This document shows, in pieces, positions 9,872 through 45,916 of a stretch of 64,000 nucleotides of DNA (position 1 is the stretch's first letter; every line of letters starts with the position of its first letter). Made by a program: the position numbers and the translations under genes. This stretch comes from Lophium mytilinum (taxonomy: Eukaryota), in NCBI GenBank assembly GCA_010093605.1, contig MU004200.1, forward strand, positions 620,001 through 684,000, given 5' to 3'. Below the pieces are notes generated by a model, which did no database searches, was not told the origin of the DNA, and was given only the letters and a program-made list of their open reading frames with translations.

Positions 9872-12800
9872 CTAAACCATCACCTCCCCCAACCCCGCCA
9901 CCCCCAACGCCCCCAAGCCCCCGATATCCACGGCTAGCTGCAGCAGATTCGTGACGCCCATGATGATCGCGAGACTCCATAGCCCCCACGTGATGCGCGT
10001 GACGTGGTATTCGTCTAGTGAGTTTGAAGAGGAGGTGGTGTTTTTAGCGGTTGAGGTGGGTGTGGAGAGGTCCGAGGCGGCGGGCGTGAAGGGGAGCCAT
10101 TCAGGGAGGGTGGTGGGGTGGGAGATTGGAGGTTGGGGGGTGGCGAGGATGGAGGGGGAGGGGGTGGGGTTGGGGGTGGAGGGAGAGGAAGAGGGGGAGG
10201 AGGAAGGGGGGGAGGAAGGGGAGGGAGCGGGGGAGTGGTGGCCAGGGGCGTGGTCGGTTTGTGAGGAGGCTACTGGTGTTGACTGGAGCGGCGAGGAGGG
10301 GGCGGGAGATGGTGGTAGGGGGGTTGGTGGGGATGGTGCTAAGGAGACTGGCGAGGATGGTGCTGCGGAGGGTGGTGGGGATGTGGCAGCAGGAGCTGGT
10401 GAGGATGGAGTAGCCTGAGTGGGCGAGGATAGAGCCACAGACGTCGGTGAGGATGCTGCTGCGTGAGTGGGTGAGGATAGTGCAGCAGAAGTCGATGGGG
10501 ATGTAGCCGCAGGGATTGGAGACGATGCAACCGACTGAACCGAATGGGCTGGGGTATAGAGAACTTTGGAGCTGTAGCCCGGGGCCGTGGCGACCCAGCA
10601 ACCCGTCCATGTCTGCGTCAATTCTACTACGGAGGTGGCGCCGCCGAGTGGGAGGATGGTTTCGGTGGTTGTATAGACACAGCTGGGGTCCCAGAAGGGT
10701 GGAATCCAGGTGCCGGTGGTTGTTGATGGCGAGGAAGGTTTGGGAGCTGGCGAGTGGTATGACGCTGTTGGCGACCCGTGGGTCGAGGGCCAGGAATAGG
10801 CTATCTCTGGGAAAGGCCTCGAGGATGGTGTCATTGGGATATAACTTGAGGACGGGATTAATGAGCTAGGGCTTGAGAATGGTGTCACGAGGACAAAGAT
10901 TGAAGATGGTGTCGCTGGGACTACAGCATCATGCCCATCGTTCAAGTTCCCAGCTTCAGGCTGAGGCCGAAAAGGGGTCAAAGAAGAAGAAGAAGACGAA
11001 GAGGTGGCGTTGCCTAACAGCCTCCCTGGTGTTGTCGCAGGAGACGTCGGTGCAGTCCCTGAGGAAAAGGGGCCCCAGTACATGCTCATCGCTTCCAGCT
11101 CCCGCTTCTTTATCGCATCCTTGGCCACGGACTCAGATGCTTGAGCTTCAATAGCGCTCTCATACGCCATATCCGAGACCGTATGCTCCATCTTCTTCTT
11201 CGGGTTCTCAGCCTTCGTGGTCCTACGTCCTCGCGGTGTTAGCCACCACCTCGCGAACCAGCCCGATCGCGCGCTGTTAGGGCTCGGCGATACCTGGCGC
11301 ACCTCGGCGCGACGTACGACCGTTGTGATTGTCAATGTGGACGTATGTGCTATCTTTGGAAAGTCGGAAGAAGTCGCATGCCATGGTGATGTAGTCGACG
11401 TTAGGGATGAGGATCCGTAAACGACCTCCCATAGTGAGGGTGTCGATGAGGGAGTCGATGTGAGCGTCTGCGTCGGCAGGTCCCAAGACATCGCGATCGA
11501 GGGCCACGAATGTAAGTGTGCAGCCTGGCTTGTACCTGGCTTACTTTGGTTGCTCGTTGCCGATTTCTGCGTATTGGTAGCCGAGACGTAGGAAATCGGG
11601 CAAACATATGCAGTGGAAGTGTGGTTATAACCCGTTGTTCTGCTTCTCTGGGTGGCATTCGATACAGACAGCGGATGGCTGACATGTGAAATCAATCCGG
11701 TGGCAGAGTGTGACGTGTGCTGCGTATTGTGAGTCGAATTACTGGTTGACTCCACGAGAGCCCTGCGCAGATGGCCAAGCTCTACATTTGCACGGACTGG
11801 AGGTGCGTCCGGCACCTGCATCGTCTTGGTCACGAGGATTGAGGCTATAATCGTATAAAGGACCGTCTCCGTGCTCACAGATGCATGTGATTGAAACGAG
11901 AGGTCCGAGTAATGCATACCTCGCTGTCCCGATCTAGGGTTGGGTTGCACAGAAGGGGGCGTGGGCTCAGGCAGGCTCGAGAGTGGAGGTAAACCCGGAT
12001 TTGGTGATCCTTGCGGCAACTTGCTCGGTGGTCGAGAAATCTGAGCTATCGACTTATATATTCCGGTCACCTCCACAGTTGACTCCCCCAATGCGGCTAT
12101 TTGAGTTGAAGAAGCAGCTGGTTGACCTATTCCAGCGCCCGCAGGTTTTGATGACAAGCTCGCGGCGCTCGATCCCGGCCCAGGGATCTTTGCAATACTG
12201 GGTTGAGCCACTCCCGACGCCGGCGATTGCAGGTGCGCTCCAGTCTTCGGCGGTGTGTCCGAGTAGGTATAATCCGGGAACACCGTCGGCAACCCTTCTG
12301 GCATGCTCACAGCACCGATAGTCGCACCAGGAGCTTCAGCTGATGAATTCCCCAGCGGACTCGAAACAGCAGGGGCAGATCCGGTAGGCTGGATATTTTT
12401 CGCCGTATTGGTAGGAAGACCACTGTATCCCTGGGCATCATAGGAGTTACTCGGGCCAGGAATCCGCTCATTCCCACAGAAATCGTCTCCAGTACCGCAG
12501 AAGCCCCATCGAGAGCAGCAGTCGCCGAAACCAGAGCCCTGACAGACCCAGCCGCTGTTGCTTGCTCCACACAATCCATTTGGAGAGATGCCACCGGTTG
12601 GTGATGAAGCTGCAGTGTTCGAGGGTAATCCAGGTTGAGCACTGAGAGTTGCTCCGGCAGGCGGAAGAATCGTCGACGGAGCCTGGTTTGAGATTGCTGG
12701 CCCAGATACAGCCTGCATAGATGAGGGTTTTCCACAGAACTCGTCACCAGTGCCGCAGAAGCCCCATTGAGAACAGCAATCGCCGAAGCCTGAGCCTTGA

Positions 12801-14155
12801 CAGGTCCAGCCGTTATTGCTTGCTCCGCAAAGGCCGTTTGGCGAAACACCACCGGTTTGTGACGGGGATAAAGTGTTCGATGGTAATCCAGATTGAGCGC
12901 TGGGAGCAACTCCGGCAGGAGGAAGCATTGCAGATGAAGCTAGGTTTGAGGGTGACGGTCCAGATACAGCCTGCATAGACGAAGCATTCCCACAGAAATC
13001 GGCCCCAGTGCCGCAGAAGCCCCATTGAGAGCAGCAATCACCGAATCCCGAGCCCGGACAGGTCCAGCCATTGTTGCTTGCTCCGCATAGCCCGTTGGGT
13101 GACACGCCACCAGCTGGTGACGAAGGTGCACTGTTCGAAGGCATAGCAGACTGAGCACTGAGAGAAGCCCCAGTAGGGTGAGGAGTCGTTGATGGAGCTA
13201 GGTTTGAGAGTGGCTGTCCAGATACAGCCTGCATAGACGTAGCCGAAGCCGCGTTCCAGCTCCCAGCCCCCAGCGCAGACGAAAGCATGCCGTTTGCTGC
13301 GCTTGTGGGAGCATTTGCTGATGCAGGCGCCTTTGCGCCAGTCTTTGGTGGTGTGTCTGAGTATGTGTAGTCAGGGAAAACGGTGGGTAAGCCTGATGGC
13401 ATGTCGATGCTCTGGGAGGCCTCCATAAATGTCGGGGAACCTGCCGAGGGCGTACTGAGAATACCTGGAAGGGAAGAGATCAAGCTCGATGGCGGCTGGT
13501 ATGCTTGCACACCAGTAGAGTTTCCAGATGCGATCGCCGTAGTCTGCGAAGGCATACCAGCTGCAGCCTGTGTCCCAGGTCTAGAAGCAGAGCTCACTCC
13601 GGGTGTGTTCCCCATTCCTCTATTTGCACCACTCAAAGCCGTCGGCAATCCAACAGGCATGATTGTAGCTCCCGGGAACGAAGAGTTTGCCGAGAAGCTC
13701 GTCGACCCATCTCCAACTCCACATTTAGGATCATCCTCGCTGCCGGGGACATACCAAGATCCCACTTCAACGGTCACGGTCTCTACCACTGTGACGGTCT
13801 TTTCCGCAGCGGCTGCCTTTTGAATCGTTGGCTCTACTTTCGAGCCGTCGACGCCGTCGGCAGGCAAGAACCAGGTACCGATAGACGTCGTATATGTCTC
13901 GAAGACGGTAACGGTGACGGTAGGGCGGAGTCCTGCTTTGCCCACAAAATTCGAGTCGGAGAGTTGGGAGTTGATGGAAAGAGGCGGCGGCTGGGCGGTG
14001 GATGTCAGGAGGAGTGGAGTCGCAGACGCCGCTTTAATGTGTATATTTGCCCGAGCGTCAGCGGTGGTGATGGCCGTGGCGAGGTTGGCGATAGCCTCTT
14101 CGGCTGCCGCGATGCCGAAGAGCAAAAGGCCGAGGGAGGGGTGTAGAAGCCTCAT
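9872..14155 (-). CDS. Large secreted/cell-surface Ser/Thr/Pro-rich (mucin-like) protein with three hevein-like chitin-binding (CBM18-type) modules and a hydrophobic C-terminus
   Basis: Signal peptide MRLLHPSLGLLLFGIAAA. Three copies of SPNGLCGASNxGWxCxGSGFGDCCSxWGFCGTGxxFCG. C-terminal ITWGLWSLAIIMGVTNLLQLAV. One 1427-codon ORF from ATG 14155. Confidence 0.85.
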   Translation of the reverse strand: MRLLHPSLGLLLFGIAAAEEAIANLATAITTADARANIHIKAASATPLLLTSTAQPPPLSINSQLSDSNFVGKAGLRPTVTVTVFETYTTSIGTWFLPADGVDGSKVEPTIQKAAAAEKTVTVVETVTVEVGSWYVPGSEDDPKCGVGDGSTSFSANSSFPGATIMPVGLPTALSGANRGMGNTPGVSSASRPGTQAAAGMPSQTTAIASGNSTGVQAYQPPSSLISSLPGILSTPSAGSPTFMEASQSIDMPSGLPTVFPDYTYSDTPPKTGAKAPASANAPTSAANGMLSSALGAGSWNAASATSMQAVSGQPLSNLAPSTTPHPTGASLSAQSAMPSNSAPSSPAGGVSPNGLCGASNNGWTCPGSGFGDCCSQWGFCGTGADFCGNASSMQAVSGPSPSNLASSAMLPPAGVAPSAQSGLPSNTLSPSQTGGVSPNGLCGASNNGWTCQGSGFGDCCSQWGFCGTGDEFCGKPSSMQAVSGPAISNQAPSTILPPAGATLSAQPGLPSNTAASSPTGGISPNGLCGASNSGWVCQGSGFGDCCSRWGFCGTGDDFCGNERIPGPSNSYDAQGYSGLPTNTAKNIQPTGSAPAVSSPLGNSSAEAPGATIGAVSMPEGLPTVFPDYTYSDTPPKTGAHLQSPASGVAQPSIAKIPGPGSSAASLSSKPAGAGIGQPAASSTQIAALGESTVEVTGIYKSIAQISRPPSKLPQGSPNPGLPPLSSLPEPTPPSVQPNPRSGQRGMHYSDLSFQSHASVSTETVLYTIIASILVTKTMQVPDAPPVRANVELGHLRRALVESTSNSTHNTQHTSHSATGLISHVSHPLSVSNATQRSRTTGYNHTSTAYVCPISYVSATNTQKSATSNQSKPGTSQAAHLHSWPSIAMSWDLPTQTLTSTPSSTPSLWEVVYGSSSLTSTTSPWHATSSDFPKIAHTSTLTITTVVRRAEVRQVSPSPNSARSGWFARWWLTPRGRRTTKAENPKKKMEHTVSDMAYESAIEAQASESVAKDAIKKRELEAMSMYWGPFSSGTAPTSPATTPGRLLGNATSSSSSSSLTPFRPQPEAGNLNDGHDAVVPATPSSIFVLVTPFSSPSSLIPSSSYIPMTPSSRPFPEIAYSWPSTHGSPTASYHSPAPKPSSPSTTTGTWIPPFWDPSCVYTTTETILPLGGATSVVELTQTWTGCWVATAPGYSSKVLYTPAHSVQSVASSPIPAATSPSTSAALSSPTHAAASSPTSVALSSPTQATPSSPAPAATSPPPSAAPSSPVSLAPSPPTPLPPSPAPSSPLQSTPVASSQTDHAPGHHSPAPSPSSPPSSSPSSSPSTPNPTPSPSILATPQPPISHPTTLPEWLPFTPAASDLSTPTSTAKNTTSSSNSLDEYHVTRITWGLWSLAIIMGVTNLLQLAVDIGGLGALGVAGLGEVMV
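12470..13240 (-). repeat. Three tandem 258-bp (86-aa) intragenic repeats, each containing one hevein-like module
   Basis: The anchor cagatacagcctgcatag occurs at 12703, 12961 and 13219, an exact 258-bp spacing. Confidence 0.92.
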
Positions 14156-14782
14156 GTTCTCAAATTGTAGCAAAACTATTCGAGAAAAAGGAAGTGGTGA
14201 TATATGGAGGGTCTAAATGGAGGATATCGAAACTCGAATTTGAAAATGAATGCAGGGTATAAATGTAATGAGGTGGTCGAGAATAAAGAACGAGAAAACA
14301 GTTCAAATAGAGCGTTGTCACATCTTAGGTAGTCGATTCGTGAAGCAGTTGACATGCTGGCAGCTACATGGCGAACAAGTGATGCAGTGATGTGAAGTTC
14401 ACGCATATTAACGGTACCATGTAGACACTTGGTCATGAGAGACGCAGCGTTCGTGGCCGCTCTTCATCTTTTACTATCTACGTGAAGGCGGAAACTTGGA
14501 GATCGACGAAGATTGAAGAAGTGATTCAAGAAGGAAATCGCTAATACTGGTATGCGGAGGTTCTTGTCCCTGCCTGCAAGCGCCGATATACCTAGCGGCG
14601 AAGTTTCGAGGGCTCGGGTACCTTAAAGAACGCAGCCTTCAAGATGATGGCAAACGGGAGCGCGGCCGTGTCAAAGTGGTGGTAAGAACCACCGTTGTTA
14701 TTCGAGTCTCGTGAACAGTGGTTGTTGCGCTGTTCCTAAGATCTGATGAGCGAAAGTGCCACGTAGGAGCTTGGAATATGTC

Positions 14783-29006: not shown

Positions 29007-31154
29007 TCAGCATATAATCAACTCCCTCTCCATCTCATTAAATTCACCTCCATCCAACACCCCCAGCACCATCCGTTCTGGAACAATCGATGGCCCAACA
29101 TGCATACACCGCAACACGTGAGGCGCATCGCTCTCCGCTTCGTGGGGTGTCTCGCGCAACACCATGAGCACGGGGCATCCACGCACGCGGCACACCACAT
29201 CCCCTGGCTTCATCACGCGGGGCCCCATACCGACCAGGCCTGTGGCGGTGCGGAAGATGACACGGCACATGGATACCCAGGTTATGTCCTGCACGAATAC
29301 TAGGCTGGTGGCACCGGCTGCGCGGCGCTGGATCTCAGCTTGCGCAGATTCGGGAAGGCTGGCATATATCGACCTCTGTGGGAGGTTGTTGCCGTCGTCG
29401 CTAACAGAAGCAGCAGTGATGAGTTCAGAGCCGGCTTCGGACGGCGAAAGCGTGGCAGTGGTAGCCCTTGCGGTCTCAAGCAGCCGATGGTACTCCAGCA
29501 GGTAAGCGGCAAAGGACTGCCGATGCATGTCCTGCGCCTCGCCGGGCTGTGTCGCGTCTTTGGAGCTGTGGTCGCCCCCTTCGGCGAGGCTACCTGCATG
29601 GTTCCGCAACCCGTCAGCCAAGGCGAGGGAGAGATTATCCAGCACCTTGATTGGATCTTTATAGTTGGAGCCCTGCGCTGGGTATACTATTTCCCAGAGC
29701 CGGTCAAGGAAAAAGGGGTTCTTCTTGGTGCGCTCCCTGAGTACATTCGTGGCAGGGAAGTCAGTCGTCTCCATCATGTGCGAAACGGCCACGACTTGGT
29801 CCACTACCCATCCGCGGGCGAGTAAACGCGGCATTGACTGCCCTGTTACGCTTTCTAGCGAGCCTACGATGCGGATGTCAGCATCTTCCTTCGCTGCTGC
29901 GGCTGTGGGATACGGCAAGGGAGCCGTCCGATTTATAGAATGCCAGTCGGGGACCCAACTGGGCATCCTGGCATCATCACTCGTGTCCCATTGGACGTGG
30001 CGCATGCTCTGGTCGCTTTCATGGTCGACGAGGGTTAATACGTAGAGGTTTTTGGTCTCTCGAATAAAGGTTGCGGCGAGCTTGGTGTATACGACTCCAC
30101 GGTTGACGTTGTAGTCCGGCTTGGCAACCATCTCCCCGTTCATGATGGCCAGCGGGTGGCCCAGGAGCGCGAAGACGCGGTCTCGCGGGTCCGTTACGCG
30201 CATAATGCGCGTCCAGTGCATTGCAGTAAGGAAATCGCACTGCGGCGTCCCATCCTTGTCGACCTCCCAGACGTAAAGGATGTGCGCGGCAACCCAGCAC
30301 TTAAGGTCCAGGTGCGTCTCTAACGAGGCGCCGTTATAGCCCACATAGCTGACAAACTCGCTCACGCGGTCCCAGTTGATGGAATGCAGCTCTAACTCGT
30401 GCTGTGGGGGCTCATCTTCATCATCCCGGAGCTCTTGTTCCTCGACCGTATCCTTCAACGCGGTAGCGGCGTGCCTTTTCTTTGAACAGAACATGTCCGC
30501 CACGCGCGCGAGACCCAGTTCCTGCACAATCCAGGTGCGGTGGAAGTACTCAATGTCGAAGAAGGCCTTGATGGCCGCCCACCTCTGCGCCTCCGTCCTA
30601 GAGCGTTTGCGATCCTCCTCGTCCAGCCGGTCGTTCTCCGTGACATCGTCCAGGTGCAGCAGGATGCGCGCTTCGTGCAGTGCCACTTCGGGGTCCTTGA
30701 GGATGTCGCGGATGACTGCCATTGCGAAGCTCGTAAGTCCCTCCTCGTCGTGGCCCAGCCAGGCTAGCACGCGCGCTGCACCAGCAAAGATGCGGCCCAT
30801 CAATCCTACCTGCGATATGCGCTCCGACATGTCGTCCTGGTTGATAGATACGGAATCCACCCAGCAGCGGCGTACATGGCCTTCGGTCGACGACCGGGGT
30901 CGCGGCCGGAGGGCCTTGAGCGCCGTTTTCAGATTGGCTGTGATGGCTACGTTCGCGCCGTCGACCTCCATAGTTTCTGTCGGGCGTCCGCCCCATACAT
31001 AGGAGATGGCCTCGTAGGGTTCGCCGTCGATGGGCTGCGCGACGAGCGTACCGACCAAAGGGTCCGATATCTCGCCGGCATGCAATTCGAGCACGCGGAT
31101 GCATTGGAGTGGGAGCGGCTTGTAGCAGGCTGCATAGACGCGTGTAGGAGGCAT
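29007..31154 (-). CDS. HET-domain (heterokaryon incompatibility, HET-6-like) protein
   Basis: IRVLEL, YEAISYVWG, WVDSVSINQDDMSERISQVGLMGRIFAGAARVLAWLG, YFHRTWIVQE, TDPRDRVFALLG, PSWVPDW and C-terminal GMGP...GDVVC motifs. Intronless. Confidence 0.93.
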   Translation of the reverse strand: MPPTRVYAACYKPLPLQCIRVLELHAGEISDPLVGTLVAQPIDGEPYEAISYVWGGRPTETMEVDGANVAITANLKTALKALRPRPRSSTEGHVRRCWVDSVSINQDDMSERISQVGLMGRIFAGAARVLAWLGHDEEGLTSFAMAVIRDILKDPEVALHEARILLHLDDVTENDRLDEEDRKRSRTEAQRWAAIKAFFDIEYFHRTWIVQELGLARVADMFCSKKRHAATALKDTVEEQELRDDEDEPPQHELELHSINWDRVSEFVSYVGYNGASLETHLDLKCWVAAHILYVWEVDKDGTPQCDFLTAMHWTRIMRVTDPRDRVFALLGHPLAIMNGEMVAKPDYNVNRGVVYTKLAATFIRETKNLYVLTLVDHESDQSMRHVQWDTSDDARMPSWVPDWHSINRTAPLPYPTAAAAKEDADIRIVGSLESVTGQSMPRLLARGWVVDQVVAVSHMMETTDFPATNVLRERTKKNPFFLDRLWEIVYPAQGSNYKDPIKVLDNLSLALADGLRNHAGSLAEGGDHSSKDATQPGEAQDMHRQSFAAYLLEYHRLLETARATTATLSPSEAGSELITAASVSDDGNNLPQRSIYASLPESAQAEIQRRAAGATSLVFVQDITWVSMCRVIFRTATGLVGMGPRVMKPGDVVCRVRGCPVLMVLRETPHEAESDAPHVLRCMHVGPSIVPERMVLGVLDGGEFNEMERELIIC

Positions 31155-31324
31155 TCCAGCCTGACCGCGGGAATTAATATTCCCGGGGCCGTTGCACTGA
31201 CGAGCCACAGGATAGCACTGATTCCCTGGGATGCTGGATTCTTGTAGGGGAGATTCCCTTCGCGCTTTGATGGGGCGACTTACATGCAGGTAGAGTACTT
31301 GAGCAAGAAAGTGGAACGGAGGGT

Positions 31325-31472
31325 TTGGGTTGTTTTCTATCGAGGGTAAGTTTACTCGAGAACTGGGGCCTTGAAACTGGGACCTATGTATGTAGCAGGC
31401 CTACGGGCCCGGAAATGGGCCTTCCGAGGCAGGGTGAGGACCCCAGTCTCAACCCTGTGGAATATAGGGCCT
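31325..31472 (+). repeat. Left copy of a ~145-bp inverted repeat (partner 40261-40404)
   Basis: ttgggttgttttctatcgagggtaagtttactcgagaa...cagtctcaaccct...gaatatagggcct is the reverse complement of 40261-40404, with about 13 substitutions and two small indels by manual alignment. Confidence 0.93.
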
Positions 31473-34263: not shown

Positions 34264-36471
34264 CTATATAAGCTCAATAAACGTGCACGTATCTTCATCA
34301 TTGCCTTTCGCCGCCAGCTCACCATGCATAAGTCCATGCAAAAAACAAGGACCTACAAGCTGATACTGTTGGCCTTCAATGACCGGTCGAAGAATGACAA
34401 GGCTTTGCAGCTCGTTGATCCAAGCTATCTTGTCGAGTTTGCTGCAGTTTGGAGCCATGCCCATGTATCCCTCCTCCGTGAGGATACACTGGTCATGCAA
34501 GAACAGAAACGAAAGAGAAGAGAAAAATAACGCGATATCCTGGATCTCGCTGGGACTTTCTACCACCATCTCTATGGTTGCTTGGAAGTTGGTCTCACTG
34601 CCACGTTTCAGAAGCTCGAGATTTCTATCGATCCAGTCTGGATTTCGGTCTTCCGCCAGACGCATGAGCTTGCCAGTGGTTTTTCCGGCAGTGATAACGC
34701 TATTGAAGACGGTTTCAAAGTCTTCGCCCGTCGGATAGCCACCTTTAACCTCGTAGTGGTCTTTTGAATAGCGAAATATGAACCCGAGGTAGATCATTGT
34801 TTCCAAGAAGTCCATGACCCCATCTTTGCCCGGGCGAGTGATCTTTGATGGCAGCGGCTGGAAGATGGTGTCGAAAACGCAGCCTCTGACAGCAAGTACA
34901 TGGTGACAGCTATTATGCAGCACCACCGCGGGTACCCGGTTCATAGCGGCCTCGAATGACACTGGATACCAGTATCTATGCGGAACACTTCTGCGATCGG
35001 GTCTCAGATCTGGTATCCATGACGGTAGACCTAGTTTATCCAAGTCCGGATCGTCGAGTCTCCCCTCGGAGTCGCCAGATTCCTTGATGAATTCTAGAAG
35101 CCCTGTTCCACCACGTTGCTCGAGGCCTGCAAATAGAAGTATCAACAATCCCTCATGCAATATGTGCTCTCGAGCGAAACGAATGTAGACCTCCCGGGAG
35201 TCGACAGTGTAGTCTGGTGCAAGACGCAGATCTGAATCCTTGGGTATAAACCCGAGGATGGCAAAGACCCGATCTCGTTCATCTTGGCATCCCCATTTGC
35301 TCAGTTCACGCGTTTTACCGAATATTTGCTGGGTATAGTCTCGCATTAGCATATTACCGCCCTTCATAGACTTCCACTTGTCGCGCGCGTCGATGAGGGT
35401 CAGCGCATGAGCGATTGGACGAGTAAGGTCTGATTCGTGGGAGAAGGATATGAACTGACAGTCTGCCGTCCACAACATCTTTACTGCCCTACGGAATTGT
35501 GACCAGGTCAGAGACTCCATACCAAGGTGTAGACTGATATCTTTCGCCAAAATCACTTCTTGAGCGATCCACAAGCGGGAGAACCAAAGGCGCGCGAGGA
35601 CATCGTCTATGCCTGTCGATCCTCGCATCTCCTAGATCTGTGTCGCAACATCTTCATCCATTGGAAATGACCAATCTTCTCCAGCAACGGGACGCGGCGC
35701 AATGTATTCATCATACTCTGGTGCCTTGCTTAGCTCGGCTAATATTTCCAAGTTCTCCAAAGCCGCTGAAGAGGTTTCGGTCGCAGAGCCTAGCCACGCC
35801 ACGACGGACTCGGCTTTGCTGTATGTTTCATCCATGCGAGCTACTTGTACTGCCTTCTCTTCTAAATTCTTTTGATCGATGCATACAGCATCAATCCAAA
35901 CTCGAAGCATAGCGTCTTTTGGCCGTAGGGCTCGTAGGGCTCGATCGAGGTTACCTGTAATCTCTAAGGACCCAAACCCGAGACCAAGTGCACCGGCGAT
36001 TGCAACACCACTCCATGTATACGACAGAGCAACGTATCTTGCATTTTCTCGGTTGAAACAGACAACCAGGTTGGCGCGCAGTGGAGCCTCGTGCGTCGAT
36101 GCCGGTTCCAGCTCTAGGACCCGAATGGCGCCGGCATCAGGCAAAGGCTCGTAAATGTAGTTGTTCGCGGTGTCCACTGGCTGGGCAAGGCTTCTCGACC
36201 GCTCAGCTTCGTTTTGGTTTCGCTCTCGAGTCTTACTCTCCCCCATGCAGTGGATGCACCTAGGAGAGCCGCTATCCGTCTCTGTGACATTGCGCTGGTA
36301 GTCTCTTCTCCAAGCTTGATTGATGAGTCGGAGGGATGCTGCAGGAGTATCCGCACTGTCATCTAGCTTCCACTCATTGAAGTCAGTGGGGTGCCCAGGG
36401 TCGTGCTTCCAGGCGTCCCCATGTCGAGATGTTCCTTCCCCATCTAGCGTTCGTTCCGTGAAAAGAGACAT
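34264..36471 (-). pseudogene. HET-domain gene interrupted by one in-frame TAG at 35632-35634
   Basis: ORF 35632-36498 (YEPL, IRVLEL, YVALSYTW, VWIDAVCIDQKNLEEKAVQVARM) continues in the same frame after ATC TAG GAG ATG into ORF 34264-35628 (WFSRLWIAQE, RDRVFAILG, LPSWIPD). Confidence 0.82.
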
Positions 36472-36863
36472 CTCAAAACGAAGTGTATTAAATGACACCT
36501 GGAGTTGGAACTCGTTGTAATAAAGTGATAAGAAGATAGGCGACTAGCTACGCCGGCAGCCTAATCGTCAAAGCGGGGTAAAAGGGAGGTCCCAGGGCGG
36601 TTACGAAGGGTGAACAAACCAGCATCCTCTAAAGGAGTGCCGTGCAGCAAGGGTGCAGGAAGGCTGAGACTCAGCCTCTTCGCTCCCACGCTTTAACGCC
36701 AGTGGCTTTTCGGCACCCCAGCACTAATATTGAGGCAGAAGCAGCCCCTGAGTTGAGGCCAAACCGTGGCTGATCACAATGCGGCCGCTAGGTATAAAAT
36801 CTCCGTCTTCGCAGCACTTCCTAAGTCGTCATGTCAGCAAGCCAGCCCCAATGAATCCTCGAC

Positions 36864-39800
36864 ATGTACTGCTTCCCATACCCACGCGCATCCAATGTCC
36901 CTCCCATCCGAGTGCCTTACATAGCTAGCGGCGCATATCCCTTCAGCGGCCCGATCACCTCCAACACCCTTTCCGAAGCTGCTCTTGCTGTGTTGTATCA
37001 ACATTTGAGGTCGAGGAATATCCCTCCATCATCGCGAGATGCCTTGGCACCACTCATACAATCATTGCTATTCTTCGGCCTAGCTTCGAAAGCGCTAGGT
37101 CGGGACGTGAAGCATGATGAGTTTATTGAGAAATGCGCTGTCGGTAGCTCCGAGGCCTCGATCGATGTTCGGATCCCCCTGCGATTCTGGTCTGAACTCA
37201 AAACCCGCTGGGACCATTTACACCACACCCTGTCGGCGAACGCATACGAGCAGAAAAGGAAAGATGTACTGCGATATTTCGACATGGCTCAGTCAACGGT
37301 CGTCAAACTAGACTACGAAGGGGAGGAGGGGGGCAGAGAGCTCGCTCTAGTTCTTCTGTCTGTCCATATGCTTCTTTACCTGATTGCCAATATTTTGGGC
37401 TCCACCACGAGCCTGAAATCGAGTCTACAGTCTAGATCAACTCAGGTGCTATTAAAAAGAATGGTCAAGAATGGGTGGTGCAGGAAAAGACTCAACTTTG
37501 TTGAGGTGGTCCCAATGTTCTATCCAGCTCTATACTTCATGTCTTCGTTTCGACCCCCGCGAGCCCTTGATGAGGATCACCGAGCGTGCACTGCGACAAA
37601 ATGCTCCATCAACGGAGGACTCCTGCAACCCTTTCATCGCACTACAGATTGCCGATGCCATGATGTCAGTGTACCGCTGAAGAAAGTCACTGATATTGTG
37701 GCGGAGGGAGGTATCCCTTTGATTCGTATTAAGCGTCCACTCTCAGGAGGTTTGGAACTAGAGGTCGTTAAGTATGAGCGGACAAGTCACTTCACAGCTG
37801 TTTCTCATGTTTGGGCTGATCGTCAATTTGGTTCAGCGAGGAATGGGCTTCCTGCGTGTCAAGTGGAGTATCTTGATTCGGTGCTGGCGGCATTACCTCG
37901 AACTATCGATCATTGGCGTCTACGCGACTGGCACCAGAAAATGTTTTCCTCATCTGGTTCTGCGGATGGCATCGAGCCACCTAGCCACACGTATCGGTTA
38001 TTCTGGCTAGACACCTTCTGTATTCCCCAAGACGCGCAGCATGACGATTTGAAACACAAAGCTATCGAGTCGATGAACCTTATATATGCGGCAGCCTCGC
38101 ACACTTTGGTCTTCGATGCTGGCCTGCAAAAGCTAGATGCTGGGCAACGGCCTTCCTCGCTCGCTACTGGTAGCCGACCAACCTTCTATGGTCCAACCGA
38201 AGAGAATTTGCCGGATGTACTTGGACATATTTGCGCCTCGAATTGGATGGGAAGGGCATGGTGAGTAACTTATGAAGTCGATCCCCGTGCTGAACTGACG
38301 ATCGCGGACAGGACGCTGCAAGAGGGCGTGTTGTCTGGTCACCTTGTCTTCCAATTGGACGGGTCCTTCGCGTATCTACGGACATTATGGACATACCTCG
38401 ATTCGGGAGCTTCGCTTTGGGAACAACTACGACATTTTCTCAGGGATAATCGAACGGCCAATCCTCCTTTGAAGCGCGCAAGAAAGGGATCGAATCCGTT
38501 TCGGGATTGCATCTGCACTGAACTTCTCGAGCTTACTAAGGAATCGCTGCATGTCGAGGAACATAGAGATTATGCACGAAGACCAGTGAGCACTTGAAGG
38601 CATATTCTAGCTGGGAACATACCACTGACAGAAACTAGGCTGACCGAGCAGCACGGTTTGTTAAATCCCATAGCCTTCTCCAGTCGCGAAGCACAACCCA
38701 GCCCGCAGACCTTCCACTGATACTGATTCATATGTCTGGAATGAACGGCAACTCTGTCTCGAAATGCAAGAGCACAAATGAGCGAATGAAGCTCCTCTTC
38801 TACGGCCTCGAAACCCTTCCGGCAGAACTACTCTTTTCCGAGTGTGCAAAGATAGGAGGGTGCACAGTGGACTCCTGGATCCCACGAGAAGTTGTTCCGG
38901 AGAGATTTTCAGGGGACCACACCTTACAGCTTGGCCCGGAAGGATTTACGTTTAGCCATAGTAAGGACAGTCGGCGCTTGAGGTTTTTCTTGATTTCCTC
39001 CTCGACCGTCTGGCAGGGCCAAATGCTGCTTTCTTTAGCAAGCAATCGCAGGGATACGATGACCAAATACCTCGTTAAGGCTCTGACATCTTCAGCCGAA
39101 CAAGGACATGCTACCTCCGAGAATGGCTGGTGCGTTCTAGTCGAGGATGAGAGTCCCAATCCTCGAGGCGCGCGGCTTGTGATTAGCCGCATCAGCGAAA
39201 ATAAGGTGTTCCTTCATTTCGATTGCTCTTTGCGACTGTCCAGCAGCGACACCGACAGTACCGCGATAACAGACCAGCTCCTTCACAACGCATGTGTTGC
39301 TCAACCAGCGGATTTAGGACAAGAGTTCATCATTGAGAAAAGCTCGACACCTCAATCTCTCGGCCTGTCTCGCCCCCAAAATCCAGAACAGTACTCGGAT
39401 AGACTCGTCGTGATTAGTCAGGCACTGTGCTGGAGCATAAGTTCCTTGGAACGATACATCATCAAGAGATGTCTTAGTGATGCGCGAGCAAGCAACATCA
39501 TTTTCCTCATCGCATATGGCTTATTCTCCTACAAGCAACGTCAATGGGTCGATCGAGCTCTCCATGCTTTCGTTCATCACGCATGGATTCAAACTTTTCA
39601 TCCAACATGGAGTCCAAACGGACGGTGGAAGTGGTTCTGGAAGTTGTCGAATTACGAGCCACCGATTCCGTTTAGCGTGATGATGAAGTACTACTGTAAG
39701 CTTGCTTTCAACCTGTCGCTATTTCTAGGTTTCTATCGTGGGATGATAATCGTGACGTTGTATTGGTTACCGCTGTATCCGAAAAAGGAGCTGTTACATA

Positions 39801-41211: not shown

Positions 41212-44200
41212 TCAACGGAAGTAAAAGGCCTCCCTCAACGGCTTCTGAAACCTCCCCAACTTCTCAAAGTCCTCATACTTGAACCCTCTCACAATCGCAT
41301 ACCCCACAATCGTATGATACTGCTTGTCGTCCGTCTCCCGAATAACCATCGGAAATTCCGTATTCTTCAACACAACCACCTTATCTCCCATCTGGATATT
41401 CGTGACTCCCCGGCAGCCCATCCCCACAAGTCCAAATTTCGTCTCGAAAAACGTTCGCCCGGAGAGCCACGTCGAGTGCTCGTATGACTCGCGATCAAAC
41501 GCCTTTTCGTCGTGGACGAACATCTTATTTGCCAGGATCCGGGGCTTGCCCTCTTCCAACTTCGCAGTTGCAGTCTCCGTCGTAGTCGTGAGAGTATTTG
41601 AGATTGTCTGTCCAGCTTCTGATACCGTCTTGTACTCTGAGATCCACGCCGAGACCTCGGCGTCCCCGGGAAACTGGGCAGCAAGAGATTCGAAATACTG
41701 GCGTGATTCCTCGGCTATTTTCCGACTCAGCCTCATTTGTCTGTCGTGATCTTCCGTGATAGTTTTCTTTATCGTGTCTCGATCTGCGATTTGTTGATCT
41801 CGGTATGGTAGGTAGGAATCATCGGCTGTACTGGATCTCTTTTGGGTGGAGTCTGGGAAGGATCGGATGGCATTAACGAAGCTCAGGACAAGTCGCACTC
41901 TCATTCTAACTTCCTCCTCGTGCTCGCATGCTGTGATGTGATGCTGCAATAGTTCGTAGCAGGGTTGTATTTTCGAGGCTATGCCCGACTCGTTGCTGGG
42001 AATCCAATCTGTAGAACTTCCACTATTTGTAGGAAGTTTGAGATCGCGCAACTTGGTGGAGACAACAGATATTTGAGAGGCACTGAATTGGCAAGGTAGA
42101 CTTGGCTTTCTCAAGTATTTGATCTGATCTAAGAGGCTTGGGTAATCAAATAACGCAGCACCGAATAGATCTGTGCTGGAGTGATTGGCTTTCTCCAGGA
42201 ATAAGCATAGTGTTGAAAGCCGAGTACATATTCGCATGAAGGCGGAAGCAATTTTCAGGTGCTCAAGCATCTGAATACTGATCGCGGTCCGGGCCTGAAC
42301 TGAAGTAGGTACGAAATCTTTGGTAAGGCCTCGCATTTGCTCCATTAAGCTTTCGCACGTGGCGTTGTGAGTTTTATAGGCATCCTTTACTTCGTTGAAG
42401 AAAGGGTCGAAACTTGATTTGAGGATATCGTGCTTATTGAATATATTGAAAGGTGGCAACTCGAAAGCTATGCTTTCCATGTCTCGTTTGACGATGGGAG
42501 AAACCCATTTTCGTATGAGATCTCTAGTGTGAAGCATTGGCAGCGTCTTGAACACTGGAGGGGACTTTCTAAGCAATGCTGCACTTGGGGTGGCAGCAAA
42601 TATGTTCTCCAGGAACCAAAGCTCCCGGACAGTGTTTGGCCAATCAGGCTGGTTGATGGCATATACGTGGTTCACTAAGTCCAGTAAGTATCCCTCCATG
42701 GCCAAAACGCCATCCCGAATAGCGATTGGGCAGGGTAAGCTTTTCTTCAACTTGCCGTAATCAAACAAGTTGTGCTCCAGCATCGCGGCCTCTGGTATTG
42801 GCTTGGTAAAATCCGGGACCCAGGAAGGCATGCTCGGAGAGAGTCTGTAAGGATACCACCAGAAGACCTGTTGCCATCCATCAATAGCCAAAACCCAGGT
42901 TGCAAGCTTATGAAAAGCAATCTCGACGGACTCTGAATATTTGGGAGTGAAAACACCTTGCGAAATTGGGTCCAAGAAGGAACGCATGCCATATATCCTG
43001 TCTCGAGGGTTGGTGCACCTTAAATTTACCTTTTTTAGAATGCCCCTTGGTAGCCACAGATGAGCAAATTCAGATTGATTTTGAGCCGAACGGAGCGTTA
43101 AAACACTGTAGACATGAAGTATTTGCCTCATAATGGGCTGCCATGACTTTTGAACGTCAAGATCGAGTTTGAATTCCCCAGAAAACGGTATAAGATGAGT
43201 TGCGATATTCCTCTGCAGCATTTTCCAGTCCCTTAGTAGAGCGGACGCTTGAATTGAGTGGTGTCCAAGGTGAAATGTTGGGTCAGTACGTGAAAGACTG
43301 TACTCTTGCTGAACCCAGATCCGGTTCCACCATGGCAGAAGACAGAAATGGACGTAAGCTTCGAGTAATTCTTGTATATTTCTCTCATCCAGACCCAAGT
43401 CTTCAATGGCCTTGTCAACCGAACCTTCTTCATGAACGTTTCGGTTGAGGAAAGAGCAGAGCGCCAACCCGCCAGTCTTTGGCTCGCCGAGATAAACAAT
43501 AACATGTTGCGCGGCCCTGTATATTTCGAGCATCATGCCAATCTGGATTTCTTTATCTCGGTTGTCGTTTTGGTTGATACACAGCGAATCTACCCATAGA
43601 ACACGAGAGTTCTCTTTCACGCGTAGGGCTTGAAGAGCATGATAGAGATTTGGGGTTATCTCAATATTTGTGCCCTCGATTTCGATGAAATAGCTGACTT
43701 CGGCTTCCATATCCCCCCACACGTATGATAAGGCTTCGTAGATGGGGCTCGTCGACAGATCCACGCAAACTATTGTGGCTTTCAACGTAGTGCCCTCACT
43801 AGGCAAGAGTGACAGAAGTCGTATACTATTTCCAGGTTCGGCGAGTCGAAATTTTTGGTAAAGCTTGGCGACGACTGACTCCGGCTCGTGCCGCAACATA
43901 TCATGTTCACGAGCTGGTGCAGTTGGTATTCCGGCCAAACATAAGATTGCGTGGGCGTGCTCTACAAGCTTCAATTGAAGATCATCCTCGGTTGCGGCCT
44001 CATCAATATTCCACGGCGGCAATTCCAAATTTGAGAATCCTAAGAAATTGTAAGTCAAATCTGAGCCTTGGGGTAGTACTTGGGTGGATAATGTCGAACT
44101 GGCTGACCTTTTCGTGTGAAGAAAAGACCGAGTACTATCGGCACACTGACAGTTATCCACGATTTGCGCCACTTGAGCATTTGTACAGGTGCCGCCTTTG

Positions 44201-45467
44201 CTTTCACTTCATCAACGTGCGCAGGAAGAGAATCGCTTTCGTAAAAGTAGACAGGATTGCGAAACTCTCGGAGCTCTTCGGGCTTCCCGAGGCGCTCCCA
44301 ATAATCCAAAAATGAAAAGGCGGTCGCTTGCGTAGTTTTCTGGTCCACGAGTCTGCGGAGCCATAGGCCGACTTCTTCGTCATCGTCAATACCTCTGGTA
44401 GAAGCTTGATTTGTGTTTCCTACTCCAACAACATAGAATGCGTGGCCTGCGCAAGTGGCCGTGATCGGTGTCTCCTGCTCGGTACGCGCTATCCACTTTT
44501 GATAACAGCCGTCGCAAACAAACATGAACAGACACGACTTGCAAGCAAGCCATCGAGTTCGAGGTTTGATCTGTTCTTTGCAAACGTCGCAAGATCCGGA
44601 GTTGGTTGGTTGTTTGAATGCAAAGGAGGCATTCGCCGCGTCGTTGCTCCACAGACACATAAGTCCCAACGCCCAAATAGGGCCCCGTTCAACCTTCAGT
44701 ATCCGTTCGCATAGCTGGGCGAGCTTAGTGACGCACTGGTGTCGTGGGCGGTCATTCCGAAGCGGCTGCTGATAGAACTGTTGAAGATAGCTGAACGATA
44801 ATAACTTACTTATCGCGACAGTAGCGGTATGAGTGTCCCCAAGTGCTTCACTGTAGCGTTCGAACGCACGCTCTAGCACGTTAACTGCCTCGTCGTGAAA
44901 ATTTCGATTTCTGAATTCGAGCCCCAGTCGATACAGCGCACGCCTTTCAACATCCATTTCAGTCCGATACAGCACACGCATTTCGACATTCGTATCAGTC
45001 CCTAGTTTCCGGGAGCCTTCCGCGACTCTCTCAAGCAAGATAAGCGCTTCTTTCAATTTCCCACGCTGGATATACACATCTGTCAAGCTAAAGGAAGTCG
45101 CAATCGTGTCGCTGTGGATGCGTCCCGCTGTCCTCTCGTCGAAGATCAGCGTTCGCTGGAGCATGCTCTCCAGTTTTGTGCTTTCCCCGATTTTTTGATA
45201 GAAGTCGCTTGATTTTCGGAGGGCAGATGATAGTTGTGGACTATTTGGGCCATATGTCTCCTCGGCATCGCTCAGCTCTTGCAAGCACGTCGCTTCGTCT
45301 GTCACCACTACGGTCGTGCTAGAGGCTGCCGGTGGGGAAACAATTCTATTTGCTCGTAACGAGAGCGCGACTTTGAGCATCATTGCCGTGAACACCCCCA
45401 GAAGAGTGACTGGGAATAACATCTGGAACACGGCTGCAAACCTGCCTCGGAGTATTGTTGTGATCAT
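41212..45467 (-). CDS. Predicted ~1395-aa fusion: N-terminal hydrophobic helix, TPR-like repeats, ZZ-type zinc finger and HET domain; intron 44040-44107
   Basis: HET motifs SIRLLSL, YEALSYVWG, LWVDSLCINQND, WWNRIWVQQE and PSWVPDF in 41212-44039. Kinesin-light-chain-type TPR units (YGPNSP, AGRIHSDT, LGDTHTAT) and CDVC...CKSC...CDGC...CAGH in 44108-45467. The phase-1 donor AAAG|gtcagc and phase-1 acceptor cttag|GA join the two overlapping ORFs in frame. Confidence 0.72.
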
Positions 45468-45916
45468 GATTGCGGGAGGCAGGTACCGCTGGCAAGACGA
45501 GATCTTGCCTGGCTTTTGCGGAAAGCATTGAAGAGGGTTAAGAGAGGCTGGGAAGCAGAGAAAGGGGATGCAGTGCGCCACCTCATTCTAGCTGCAAGGC
45601 TGAAACGAACTAACGCAGGTGTCGTCTTTGGCCTCACGGGGATTTACTGAGGCCGCATCTTTCATTTATTACCTATGGTACAACACCGGCAGGTGCTGAG
45701 TTCCGACCATCGATGATTTCAGCCTGGAGAATTGAGATCCTAGGTTGAGGTGAGGTTAGAGACAAAGTGGGCCATGGCATGGCTTGATTGGAGGGACGAC
45801 CTTGGCCGCAAAATCGCCGCAAGATGACCTGAGCCGGGCCTGAGGCAAAATCAGCCACAGTGGCGCTAGATCACGTGAGCAGTGTGGTGGGGCAGACCTC
45901 GAGTGCACATTGAGGT

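Follow-up and report, generated by a model that had tools for sequence, protein, structure and literature searches.

According to reviews, few domains of filamentous fungi are as abundant as HET or as poorly understood, and its mode of killing and its control outside NLRs are treated there as open questions. It is described as a TIR-related death domain that also occurs in non-NLR contexts (PMC10890737, PMC12881547, PMC10197012), and a TIR-like fold or an NAD-cleaving activity has been proposed for it in the literature. Known architectures with this effector include the HNWD family (HET-E/D/R, HET-NACHT-WD40), while TPR repeats of the TPR_10/12 type are found in the NB-ARC-TPR NLRs. In Podospora anserina, the BH protein (het-B, PMC10890737) is reported to combine HET and a recognition domain in a single chain without a NOD, the recognition domain being a C-terminal lectin fold that is strongly divergent between alleles. 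Fusarium ankyrin-HET proteins (e.g., P0041, 1,259 aa) carry their repeats ahead of HET without NACHT or NB-ARC (ankyrin repeats at ~129-556, HET at 698-833, no NOD).

The protein analyzed here is encoded in a window of 64,000 nucleotides from Lophium mytilinum, in which positions 41212-45467 of the minus strand form one two-exon gene for a protein of 1,395 aa (Table 1). Compared with the HNWD proteins and NB-ARC-TPR NLRs, with which it shares the HET effector and TPR_10/12-type repeats, it lacks a NOD and a Walker A motif, its order is reversed, and its TPRs are few, without array expansion. Like BH, it has a HET-associated region after HET, but its additional module is a conserved N-terminal TPR plus Cys/His finger, and it has an added candidate anchor helix and a 330-aa helical bundle. 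The Fusarium proteins resemble it in having repeats before HET and no nucleotide-binding module, although the repeats are ankyrin rather than TPR, there is no Cys/His finger, and the HET part is only ~30% identical and not orthologous; ankyrin and HET occurred together in 10 of the 120 listed homology matches. The "inverted, NBD-less" layout proposed in a preliminary description of this DNA is real, but not unique. The closest public models are a Lophiostoma macrostomum "HET-domain-containing protein" (P0018) and the Kalmusia sp. hypothetical protein N0V90_013320 (P0012), which belong to the same family, carry TPR_12 and HET, and share the same junction, with identities of 63 to 71% over the HET part and 66 to 74% over exon 1. 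Both are unstudied predictions whose models omit part of the N-terminal helix that is kept in the ORFs of close relatives. A search of literature titles and abstract openings, outside subscription journals, found no TPR-finger-HET protein.

The gene is composed of two minus-strand frames that extend, from stop to stop, over 44055..45587 (510 codons) and 41212..44208 (998 codons). Both frames had been recognized in the preliminary description, with sizes of 508 and 986 aa. The upstream (TPR) frame has its first ATG at 45467. That of the HET frame comes late, as had been noted, at codon 103 of the stop-to-stop frame (codon ~92 in the preliminary description), and it corresponds to residue 501 of the spliced protein. 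The two frames meet through a split Gly codon (..FFTRK-G-FSNLELPPW..) at a 68-nt intron (AAAG/GTCAGC...TTGAC...TTCTTAG/GA) with GT..AG ends, giving a spliced coding sequence of 4,188 nt (1,395 codons plus stop) without an internal stop, whereas the frame read through the intron contains one. The in-frame joining, for which RNA across the intron had been suggested as a check, is confirmed by spliced transcript contigs that cover both ORFs. A single 5,004-nt contig of run X1, without differences from the window, covers 45761-44107 and 44038-41000 and extends beyond 41000, with exactly 68 nt missing (GT..AG, minus strand). The identical 68 nt are absent from contigs of the metatranscriptome runs X3 and X4, which come from a relative (~93% alike). 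Every contig crossing the site in these three runs is spliced, with none retaining the intron, and run X2 gave only short pieces (8 listed, 198 to 447 nt), none of which spans it. Position, length, and GT..AG ends of the intron are the same in two orthologous loci (L002 and L004); with respect to L002, 16 of its 68 positions differ, compared to ~10% in the exons, and the intron thus diverges twice as fast. An extra internal promoter may also give rise to a HET-only product, which would be compatible with the contig data.

Table 1. Features of the two-exon gene, in positions of the window
Feature	Position	Strand	Basis
5' untranslated part; 5 ATG triplets	45468..45761	-	reach of X1 contig (end of the contig, which need not be the transcript start)
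Exon 1 coding part, residues 1-453 and first base of Gly454	44108..45467	-	ORF and transcript contig
N-terminal hydrophobic helix, residues ~10-37, candidate membrane anchor	45357..45440	-	Kyte-Doolittle and conservation
TPR region, ~4-5 helical hairpins, residues ~56-234	44766..45302	-	Pfam and AF2
Cys-rich zinc-finger-like module, CxxC-x12-CxxC-x5-CxxC-x17-CxxH, residues 293-342	44442..44591	-	ligand conservation
Short hydrophobic stretch WITVSVPIVLGLFF, end of exon 1	44118..44159	-	Kyte-Doolittle
Intron, 68 nt, GTCAGC...TTGAC...TAG	44040..44107	-	skipped in X1, X3, X4; conserved in L002, L004
Exon 2 coding part, last two bases of Gly454, residues 455-1395, and stop codon (41212-41214)	41212..44039	-	ORF and transcript contig
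HET domain PF06985, residues 554-699, blocks YEALSYVWG, WVDSLCINQ, WVQQEY	43303..43740	-	Pfam and alignment
Long helical bundle, exon-2 product P0002 residues 532-858	41464..42444	-	AF2
C-terminal beta barrel, P0002 residues 861-940	41218..41457	-	AF2 strands

From its N terminus, the product consists of a hydrophobic helix, TPR_12/TPR_10 repeats, a finger with seven Cys and one His, a linker, HET, an alpha/beta region associated with HET, a helical bundle, and a C-terminal barrel. The order TPR, finger, HET without a nucleotide-binding domain, already proposed from the letters, was recovered by Pfam and motif scans. Neither exon product matched NACHT or NB-ARC at E<=1 in Pfam, and the 1,395 aa contain no Walker A motif ([AG]xxxxGK[ST]), in agreement with the absence of a P-loop noted earlier. 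Of the features that define NLR/STAND proteins, there is no central NACHT or NB-ARC with a P-loop and no long conserved or hypervariable C-terminal repeat array, the repeats being four to five degenerate N-terminal TPRs (dN/dS of 0.33 in one pair) without the internally conserved arrays of NLR sensors.

Membrane segments are expected above a Kyte-Doolittle mean of 1.6 over ~19 or more residues. The N-terminal helix reaches a 19-mer mean of 1.96 at residues 17-35 and is kept in all six exon-1 ORFs that extend to the N terminus (means of 1.85 to 2.24), making it a candidate membrane anchor. Behind it, TPR_12 (PF13424) matched residues 82-154 of the exon-1 product P0001 with 47.6 bits (cutoff of 30.1) and TPR_10 (PF13374) residues 179-214 with 29.7 bits (cutoff of 27.5). 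AlphaFold had been suggested as a check; for exon 1 (10-row alignment), AF2 was confident only in the first TPRs (pLDDT of 85 to 89 for the helices of residues 60-110) and poor in the rest (mean of 51 for exon 1). As many as 7,059 TPR proteins match the TPR part only, and among the best 16 nonorthologous matches, 3 carry NB-ARC, 1 carries PNP_UDP, and 10 carry CHAT, so that this TPR class is not specific to NLRs. The comparison with an NLR-type sensor tail is hence correct in that NB-ARC-TPR tails share the repeat class, but the class is neither NLR specific nor, in this gene, hypervariable like the usual sensor repeats of NLRs.

In the Cys/His finger located between TPR and HET, all eight ligand positions (seven Cys and one His) are invariant in four orthologues. 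ZZ domains are two-zinc cross-braces with eight Cys/His ligands in a characteristic spacing. The assignment of the finger to the ZZ family is not established, as Pfam ZZ (PF00569) gave at best E=0.62 and 10.4 bits (cutoff of 21.4) and matched in two of the four orthologues, while FYVE, C1, and RING produced sub-threshold matches that scored as high or higher. Comparison of the finger profile with the PDB returned four rows at chance level (E of 1 to 9.6). Three of them belong to two ZZ proteins, with whose Cys pairs those of the finger align (E=3.2 and 9.5), and a LIM domain scores E=1. A PDB sequence search with residues 240-454 found a Nup153 finger, also at chance level (E=0.76). In the best Atlas cluster for the finger (score of 0.89), 30% of the proteins carry ZZ, and AF2 modeled this part with pLDDT below 55. 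The finger plus linker region had 17 matches, and each of them is an exon-1 product from this family. The stretch WITVSVPIVLGLFF, with which exon 1 ends, had been noted as hydrophobic, but its Kyte-Doolittle 19-mer mean is 1.25, the Mytilinidion orthologue has the polar WISSRTPQLLSRFF in its place, and the Lophiostoma version holds a D. It is probably not membrane spanning, and a tether, if there is one, would be the N-terminal helix.

HET was recognized over its full profile (1-146) with 109.7 bits (cutoff of 22.5) and an E of 2.1e-31. We examined the consensus blocks Y-x-ALSY-x-WG, W-x-D-x-x-CINQ, and W-x-R-x-W-x-x-QE in an alignment of 45 sequences, and the invariant positions A102, L103, S104, Y105, and G108, W148, D150, and C153, and R239, W241, Q244, and E245 are all present. 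The helical bundle was predicted with pLDDT mostly of 80 to 93 and found generic helical-bundle structures only (Z up to 12.7). The motif GLVGMG..GD.V of the barrel aligns with the adjacent HET ORF at 29007-31400, and the barrel is common to other HET proteins. Against the PDB, Foldseek with the exon-2 AF2 model gave no matches at E<=0.001, and the exon-2 profile returned one row at chance level (E=0.37). The VIA-align list for this model consisted of matches to the helical bundle (residues 540-837) and reflects neither the HET nor the barrel fold. A complex prediction of TPR plus finger (P0001 56-345) with HET and the post-HET region (P0002 1-520) scored 0.00, a value that speaks neither for nor against contact.

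Among 5.8 billion proteins, approximately 20 orthologue clusters were found, patchily distributed over Helotiales-like and Pleosporales/Mytilinidiales fungi, and family identity is 60 to 87% across Leotiomycetes-like and Dothideomycetes fungi. The same domain order, for which an orthologue search had been recommended, recurs in public models. Those of Kalmusia (P0012, 1,374 aa) and Lophiostoma (P0018, 1,441 aa) are fused at the same junction, so the possibility that homologues are always two separate genes does not hold, and both parts are joined in Mytilinidion (P0019) too. Two of the six named public models are split, namely, that of Bisporella (P0005) and that of Didymosphaeria (P0016), where the TPR part is annotated as a gene of its own (P0290); the Didymosphaeria TPR gene N0V89_010436 and HET gene N0V89_010435 have adjacent locus tags. 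The tree places the Helotiales-like group beside monophyletic Pleosporales with Mytilinidion outside, under a midpoint root and with long-branch warnings, and horizontal transfer between classes was considered and set aside, as such a tree gives no decision. In the one pair compared, dS was 0.21 in both exons and dN/dS was below 1 in all 10 segments, with no hypervariable region between relatives. TPR, finger, and HET are under purifying selection in this pair (dN/dS of 0.2 to 0.33; 0.22 for the finger and 0.31 for HET), which sets the protein apart from the usual hypervariable sensors, and the helical bundle (0.69) and the linker between finger and HET evolve faster. The gene lies among three other HET genes in the window, and no Starship or other mobile-context gene was found among the 32 scanned ORFs of at least 170 aa. 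At least one orthologue is disrupted by a MITE-like insert, suggesting that the gene is dispensable.

With moderate confidence, we regard the product as a non-NLR HET protein of the fungal regulated-cell-death/immunity pool, and a receptor and cell-death function is what we infer for it. HET would be the effector (death domain), and TPR plus finger would bind proteins and serve in regulation or recognition, restraining HET and releasing it when a partner is bound or lost. The N-terminal helix probably would tether the protein to a membrane, the other parts lying in the cytosol, and the helical bundle could be the likeliest site of self-association, taking the role of the NOD in NLRs. Since TPR and finger are conserved and not hypervariable, the partner is more likely to be a component of the cell or of a microbe that is itself conserved, rather than a polymorphic protein of allorecognition. 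A far-reaching version, which we consider rather doubtful, would make this family a conserved group of death receptors that are anchored in the membrane and lack a NOD, in which TPR and a cross-brace finger sense a conserved cue or guard a conserved host component, the helical bundle oligomerizes in place of the NOD to switch on a TIR-like HET enzyme, and the gene possibly moved between Leotiomycetes and Dothideomycetes. If this were true, it would represent a one-chain class of fungal immune receptors separate from NLRs.

A less probable but serious alternative is that, within the fused gene, TPR plus finger is a docking or localization module (e.g., for a chaperone or scaffold at the membrane) of a HET enzyme with a conserved nonimmune role. 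Membrane-bound docking proteins are commonly built in this way, with an anchor at the N terminus and TPRs after it. The high identity across the two classes, the purifying selection on TPR and finger, and the few degenerate TPRs, without the conserved arrays of NLR sensors, would all be expected of such a module. Reviews describe immune-type HET genes as poorly conserved, so conservation over two fungal classes is unusual for them and could point to a nonimmune role. On the other hand, in the literature covered, HET domains have been tied so far only to cell death and incompatibility, and the location among three other HET genes, the patchy distribution with so few clusters, and the dispensability suggested by the MITE-like insert speak against this alternative.

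We find a role in classical allorecognition (as a het/vic gene), in which TPR plus finger would determine specificity, improbable. HET genes are clustered at the locus, and non-NLR HET genes are reported to set incompatibility in Neurospora, Cryphonectria, and Podospora, but orthology across classes is clear and none of the 10 segments of the pair compared shows the variability of such a determinant. That the locus holds two independent genes is very improbable. One would encode a TPR/finger protein of 470 aa with its stop at 44055-44057, the other a HET protein of 895 aa from Met501 (43899), and the joined contig would be read-through or a minor isoform. This idea would agree with the two split annotations, with the resemblance of MLRHEPE..LYQKF..IRLL to an ordinary HET-protein N terminus, with the adjacent HET ORF aligning only from P0002 residue 52 onward, and with the fast evolution of the 45 codons ahead of the Met (dN/dS of 0.74 in one pair), but the contigs are uniformly spliced, the intron is kept in place, length, and ends while its sequence drifts, the stop and the next start would be only ~155 nt apart on the same strand, the frame stays open in all orthologues, a confident AF2 helix (pLDDT of 73 to 86) lies upstream of Met501, and this Met is Ile in P0004, Leu in P0018 (Lophiostoma), and absent in P0019 (Mytilinidion). 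An independent HET start, named in the preliminary description as evidence against a fusion, is thus not borne out by conservation.

As an annotation, the one-gene model of this locus is solid, and it corrects the gene models of several public genomes, in which the locus is truncated or annotated as two genes, one for a "TPR-like protein" and one for a HET protein. As biology, the finding is modest, as the architecture is already in public databases and repeat-before-HET proteins exist elsewhere, and the protein is a moderately unusual member of the large fungal HET family. The family is nevertheless well conserved and expressed, looks single copy, and adds to HET a defined module and probably an anchor, and for this reason it may offer a tractable case for the regulation of HET without a NOD.

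Two overlapping stop-to-stop frames lie on the minus strand, an upstream one of 510 codons (44055..45587, first ATG at 45467) and a downstream one of 998 codons (41212..44208, first ATG at codon 103). Removal of a 68-nt intron (44107-44040) with GT..AG ends and a branch-like TTGAC 19 nt ahead of the AG (...ACACGAAAAG/GTCAGCC...TTGACTTACAATTTCTTAG/GATTCTCA...) fuses them through a split Gly codon (..LGLFFTRK-G-FSNLELPPW..), giving a coding sequence of 4,188 nt that comprises 1,395 codons and a terminal stop and is free of internal stops. The in-frame joining of two ORFs proposed in the preliminary description was borne out by the window sequence; its ORF figures pointed to the right objects and were slightly off in their numbers (508 and 986 aa, first ATG near codon 92). 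We consider this single spliced two-ORF gene model to be nearly certain.

Public sequencing runs also contained contigs matching the locus. A 5,004-nt contig from run X1 showed no differences from the window, spanning 45761-44107 and 44038-41000 and then about 310 nt more, with precisely 68 nt missing (CT..AC on the plus strand). Run X1 is RNA by guess only, and its contig is best explained as cDNA, because it comes from the same strain and yet lacks exactly a GT..AG segment that the genomic window has. An 8.6-to-8.7-kb contig from a relative about 93% alike, found in two metatranscriptome runs (X3 and X4, from two studies, possibly of one campaign), omits the identical 68 nt. The gene is expressed as a spliced mRNA, the junction predicted at 44040-44107 being spliced in the contigs of all three runs, where no further intron-type joints were seen. 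The X3 and X4 contigs also lack 36 nt at 44929-44964, in frame, with CG..TC ends and in a part of the TPR region modelled as a low-confidence loop, probably an indel of this relative. They have one base fewer, at 43038, in an A6 run (43036-43041); this loss, if real, would shift the frame after the HET domain. At least 294 nt of transcript contig precede the start codon (45468-45761, minus strand), including five ATG triplets that could be upstream ORFs.

With the exon-2 product as query (P0002; 8,000 candidates scored), 400 proteins were retrieved at an E value of ≤0.001, 20 of which (P0003-P0022; organism names on six) are orthologues with 60 to 90% identity, the following matches falling to ~32%. 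Their public gene models are inconsistent. The expected domain order was found in Kalmusia (P0012, 1,374 aa) and Lophiostoma (P0018, 1,441 aa), modelled as TPR and HET fusions with the identical junction; both models excise part of the N-terminal hydrophobic helix. The Mytilinidion model (P0019) is fused but truncated N-terminally, that of Paraconiothyrium (P0013) retains the intron as read-through, and those of Bisporella (P0005) and Didymosphaeria (P0016, N0V89_010435) begin at, or close to, the internal Met of the HET frame, the TPR part being annotated in the latter as the adjoining gene N0V89_010436 (P0290). This Met is not kept, being replaced by Ile in P0004 and by Leu in P0018 and absent from P0019. 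It is possible that a minor HET-only transcript exists beside the spliced mRNA; contig ends are not mapped transcript starts, and contigs are blind to starts and rare isoforms.

Orthologous loci on two metagenome contigs (L002 and L004) consist of exon 1, a 68-nt GT..AG intron in the matching place and exon 2, and the intron read-through frame meets a stop in both. Compared with L002, 16 of the 68 intron positions differ (24%) versus 10.3% and 10.6% in the exons; dS is 0.21 in exon 1 and exon 2 alike (one pair). When the finger and linker of the exon-1 product (P0001 236-454) were searched among proteins of near lengths, all 17 proteins recovered were exon-1 products of this family, and searching longer proteins with the whole of P0001 gave only fused orthologues and generic TPR proteins. 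In these searches, therefore, the TPR-finger part came up neither by itself nor within a different architecture. The orthologue in L004 is broken by a MITE-like insert of ~275 nt (2813-3087, corresponding to about position 42995 of the window and exon-2 codon ~347) bearing ~29-nt terminal inverted repeats together with a TA duplication. The frame also changes near 2288, and this copy is probably decaying. Another contig, L003, is 100% identical to L004 downstream of the insert and unlike it upstream, a pattern typical of assemblies broken at a repeat. Conservation across two fungal classes is unusual and is the most notable trait of the family; it could reflect old orthology with losses or transfer, the tree being compatible with both.

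Features of the TPR-finger-HET protein (dN/dS values from one sequence pair) and HET ORFs in the window
Feature	Position	Strand	Evidence
Hydrophobic helix	residues ~10-37		Kyte-Doolittle 19-mer mean 1.96
TPRs	residues ~56-234		TPR_12 47.6 bits, TPR_10 29.7 bits; AF2, 4-5 hairpins, first ones confident
Finger CxxC-x12-CxxC-x5-CxxC-x17-CxxH	residues 293-342		8/8 ligand positions invariant in four orthologues
Two linker stretches	residues 343-500		dN/dS 0.85 and 0.74; confident helix at P0002 17-34
HET	residues 554-699		109.7 bits; every conserved block present
Alpha/beta region	after HET to P0002 530		PSWVPDF motif; dN/dS 0.21
Helical bundle	P0002 532-858		pLDDT mostly 80-93; dN/dS 0.69
Beta barrel	P0002 861-940		GLVGMG..GD.V motif, common to neighbouring HET ORF
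HET ORF	29007-31400	minus	Pfam E 1.7e-24
HET ORF	34264-36543	minus	Pfam E 3.9e-20
HET ORF	36855-38264	plus	Pfam E 7.6e-09

The domain order is clear and a nucleotide-binding module (NOD) is absent, with no NACHT or NB-ARC match at an E value of ≤1 in the protein and no Walker A motif. The AF2 model of P0002 reached an overall pLDDT of 79.5 and pTM of 0.71, and the fold of the exon-1 product was poor overall. In the one pair compared, the folded modules are under purifying selection. The N-terminal helix is kept in all six exon-1 ORFs that reach the N terminus (means of 1.85 to 2.24), from Helotiales-like and Didymosphaeriaceae-like groups. The inner hydrophobic stretch WITVSVPIVLGLFF is unconvincing as a membrane segment (19-mer mean of 1.25), its counterpart in Mytilinidion, WISSRTPQLLSRFF, being polar. 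The finger looks like a Cys/His module of the cross-brace type. Its ZZ label was not established, with 10.4 bits against a Pfam cutoff of 21.4 and similar scores for FYVE, C1 and RING. A four-sequence profile matched a LIM domain in the PDB (E = 1) and two ZZ proteins (three of four entries) at E values of 3.2 and 9.5 with Cys pairs aligned, and 30% of the members of the best Atlas cluster (0.89) carry ZZ. The finger may be ZZ-like. The TPRs belong to a repeat class common to NLRs, as had been suggested, but are not NLR specific: the best 16 nonorthologous matches were 10 CHAT-TPR, three NB-ARC-TPR, one PNP_UDP-TPR and two TPR-only proteins.

The window is a stretch of ordinary fungal chromosome in which a scan of 32 ORFs found SPT16, a POT transporter, a chitin-binding protein, a methyltransferase, a P450, a carbonic anhydrase, a fungal transcription factor and an FMO. 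A 1,446-codon open frame (9872-14212, minus strand) has three Chitin_bind_1 stretches and, in its remainder, no Pfam match at 1e-5. Three extra HET ORFs (29 to 38 kb) lie less than 16 kb from the TPR-finger-HET gene, forming a local HET cluster; the first shares 27% identity and the C-terminal barrel motif with exon 2. HET gene clustering is on record in the literature (PMC10197012).

Passages of PMC10890737, PMC12881547 and PMC10197012 describe HET as remotely related to TIR, present in NLRs as well as, more commonly, in non-NLR contexts, and of unknown mechanism, with just a few HET genes being het genes. One non-NLR example, Podospora anserina BH, has a lectin-fold specificity domain at its C terminus (PMC10890737). 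The layout described as inverted and NBD-less does place TPR-finger before HET without a NOD, but similar layouts exist in Fusarium, where P0041 has ankyrin repeats (~129-556) ahead of HET (698-833), also without a NOD. Ank and HET co-occur in 10 of the 120 matches listed in the P0002 search, and a methyltransferase-HET protein also exists. The protein is a non-NLR HET-domain protein with an accessory module, a kind already known. Its family is already public as hypothetical or HET-domain proteins, two of them modelled fused, and no description of the architecture was found in the titles and abstract openings of the literature searched.

TPRs and zinc fingers are modules found in the cytosol, and the N-terminal helix would tether the protein to a membrane with its bulk in the cytosol. 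Self-association may be a function of the helical bundle. The TPR-finger part would bind a partner and control HET; since TPR and finger are conserved rather than hypervariable, that partner would be a conserved one, guard-type or housekeeping, rather than one of allorecognition. The main competing explanation is a docking role unrelated to immunity. We give roughly even odds that the TPR-finger-HET protein is an effector of regulated death.
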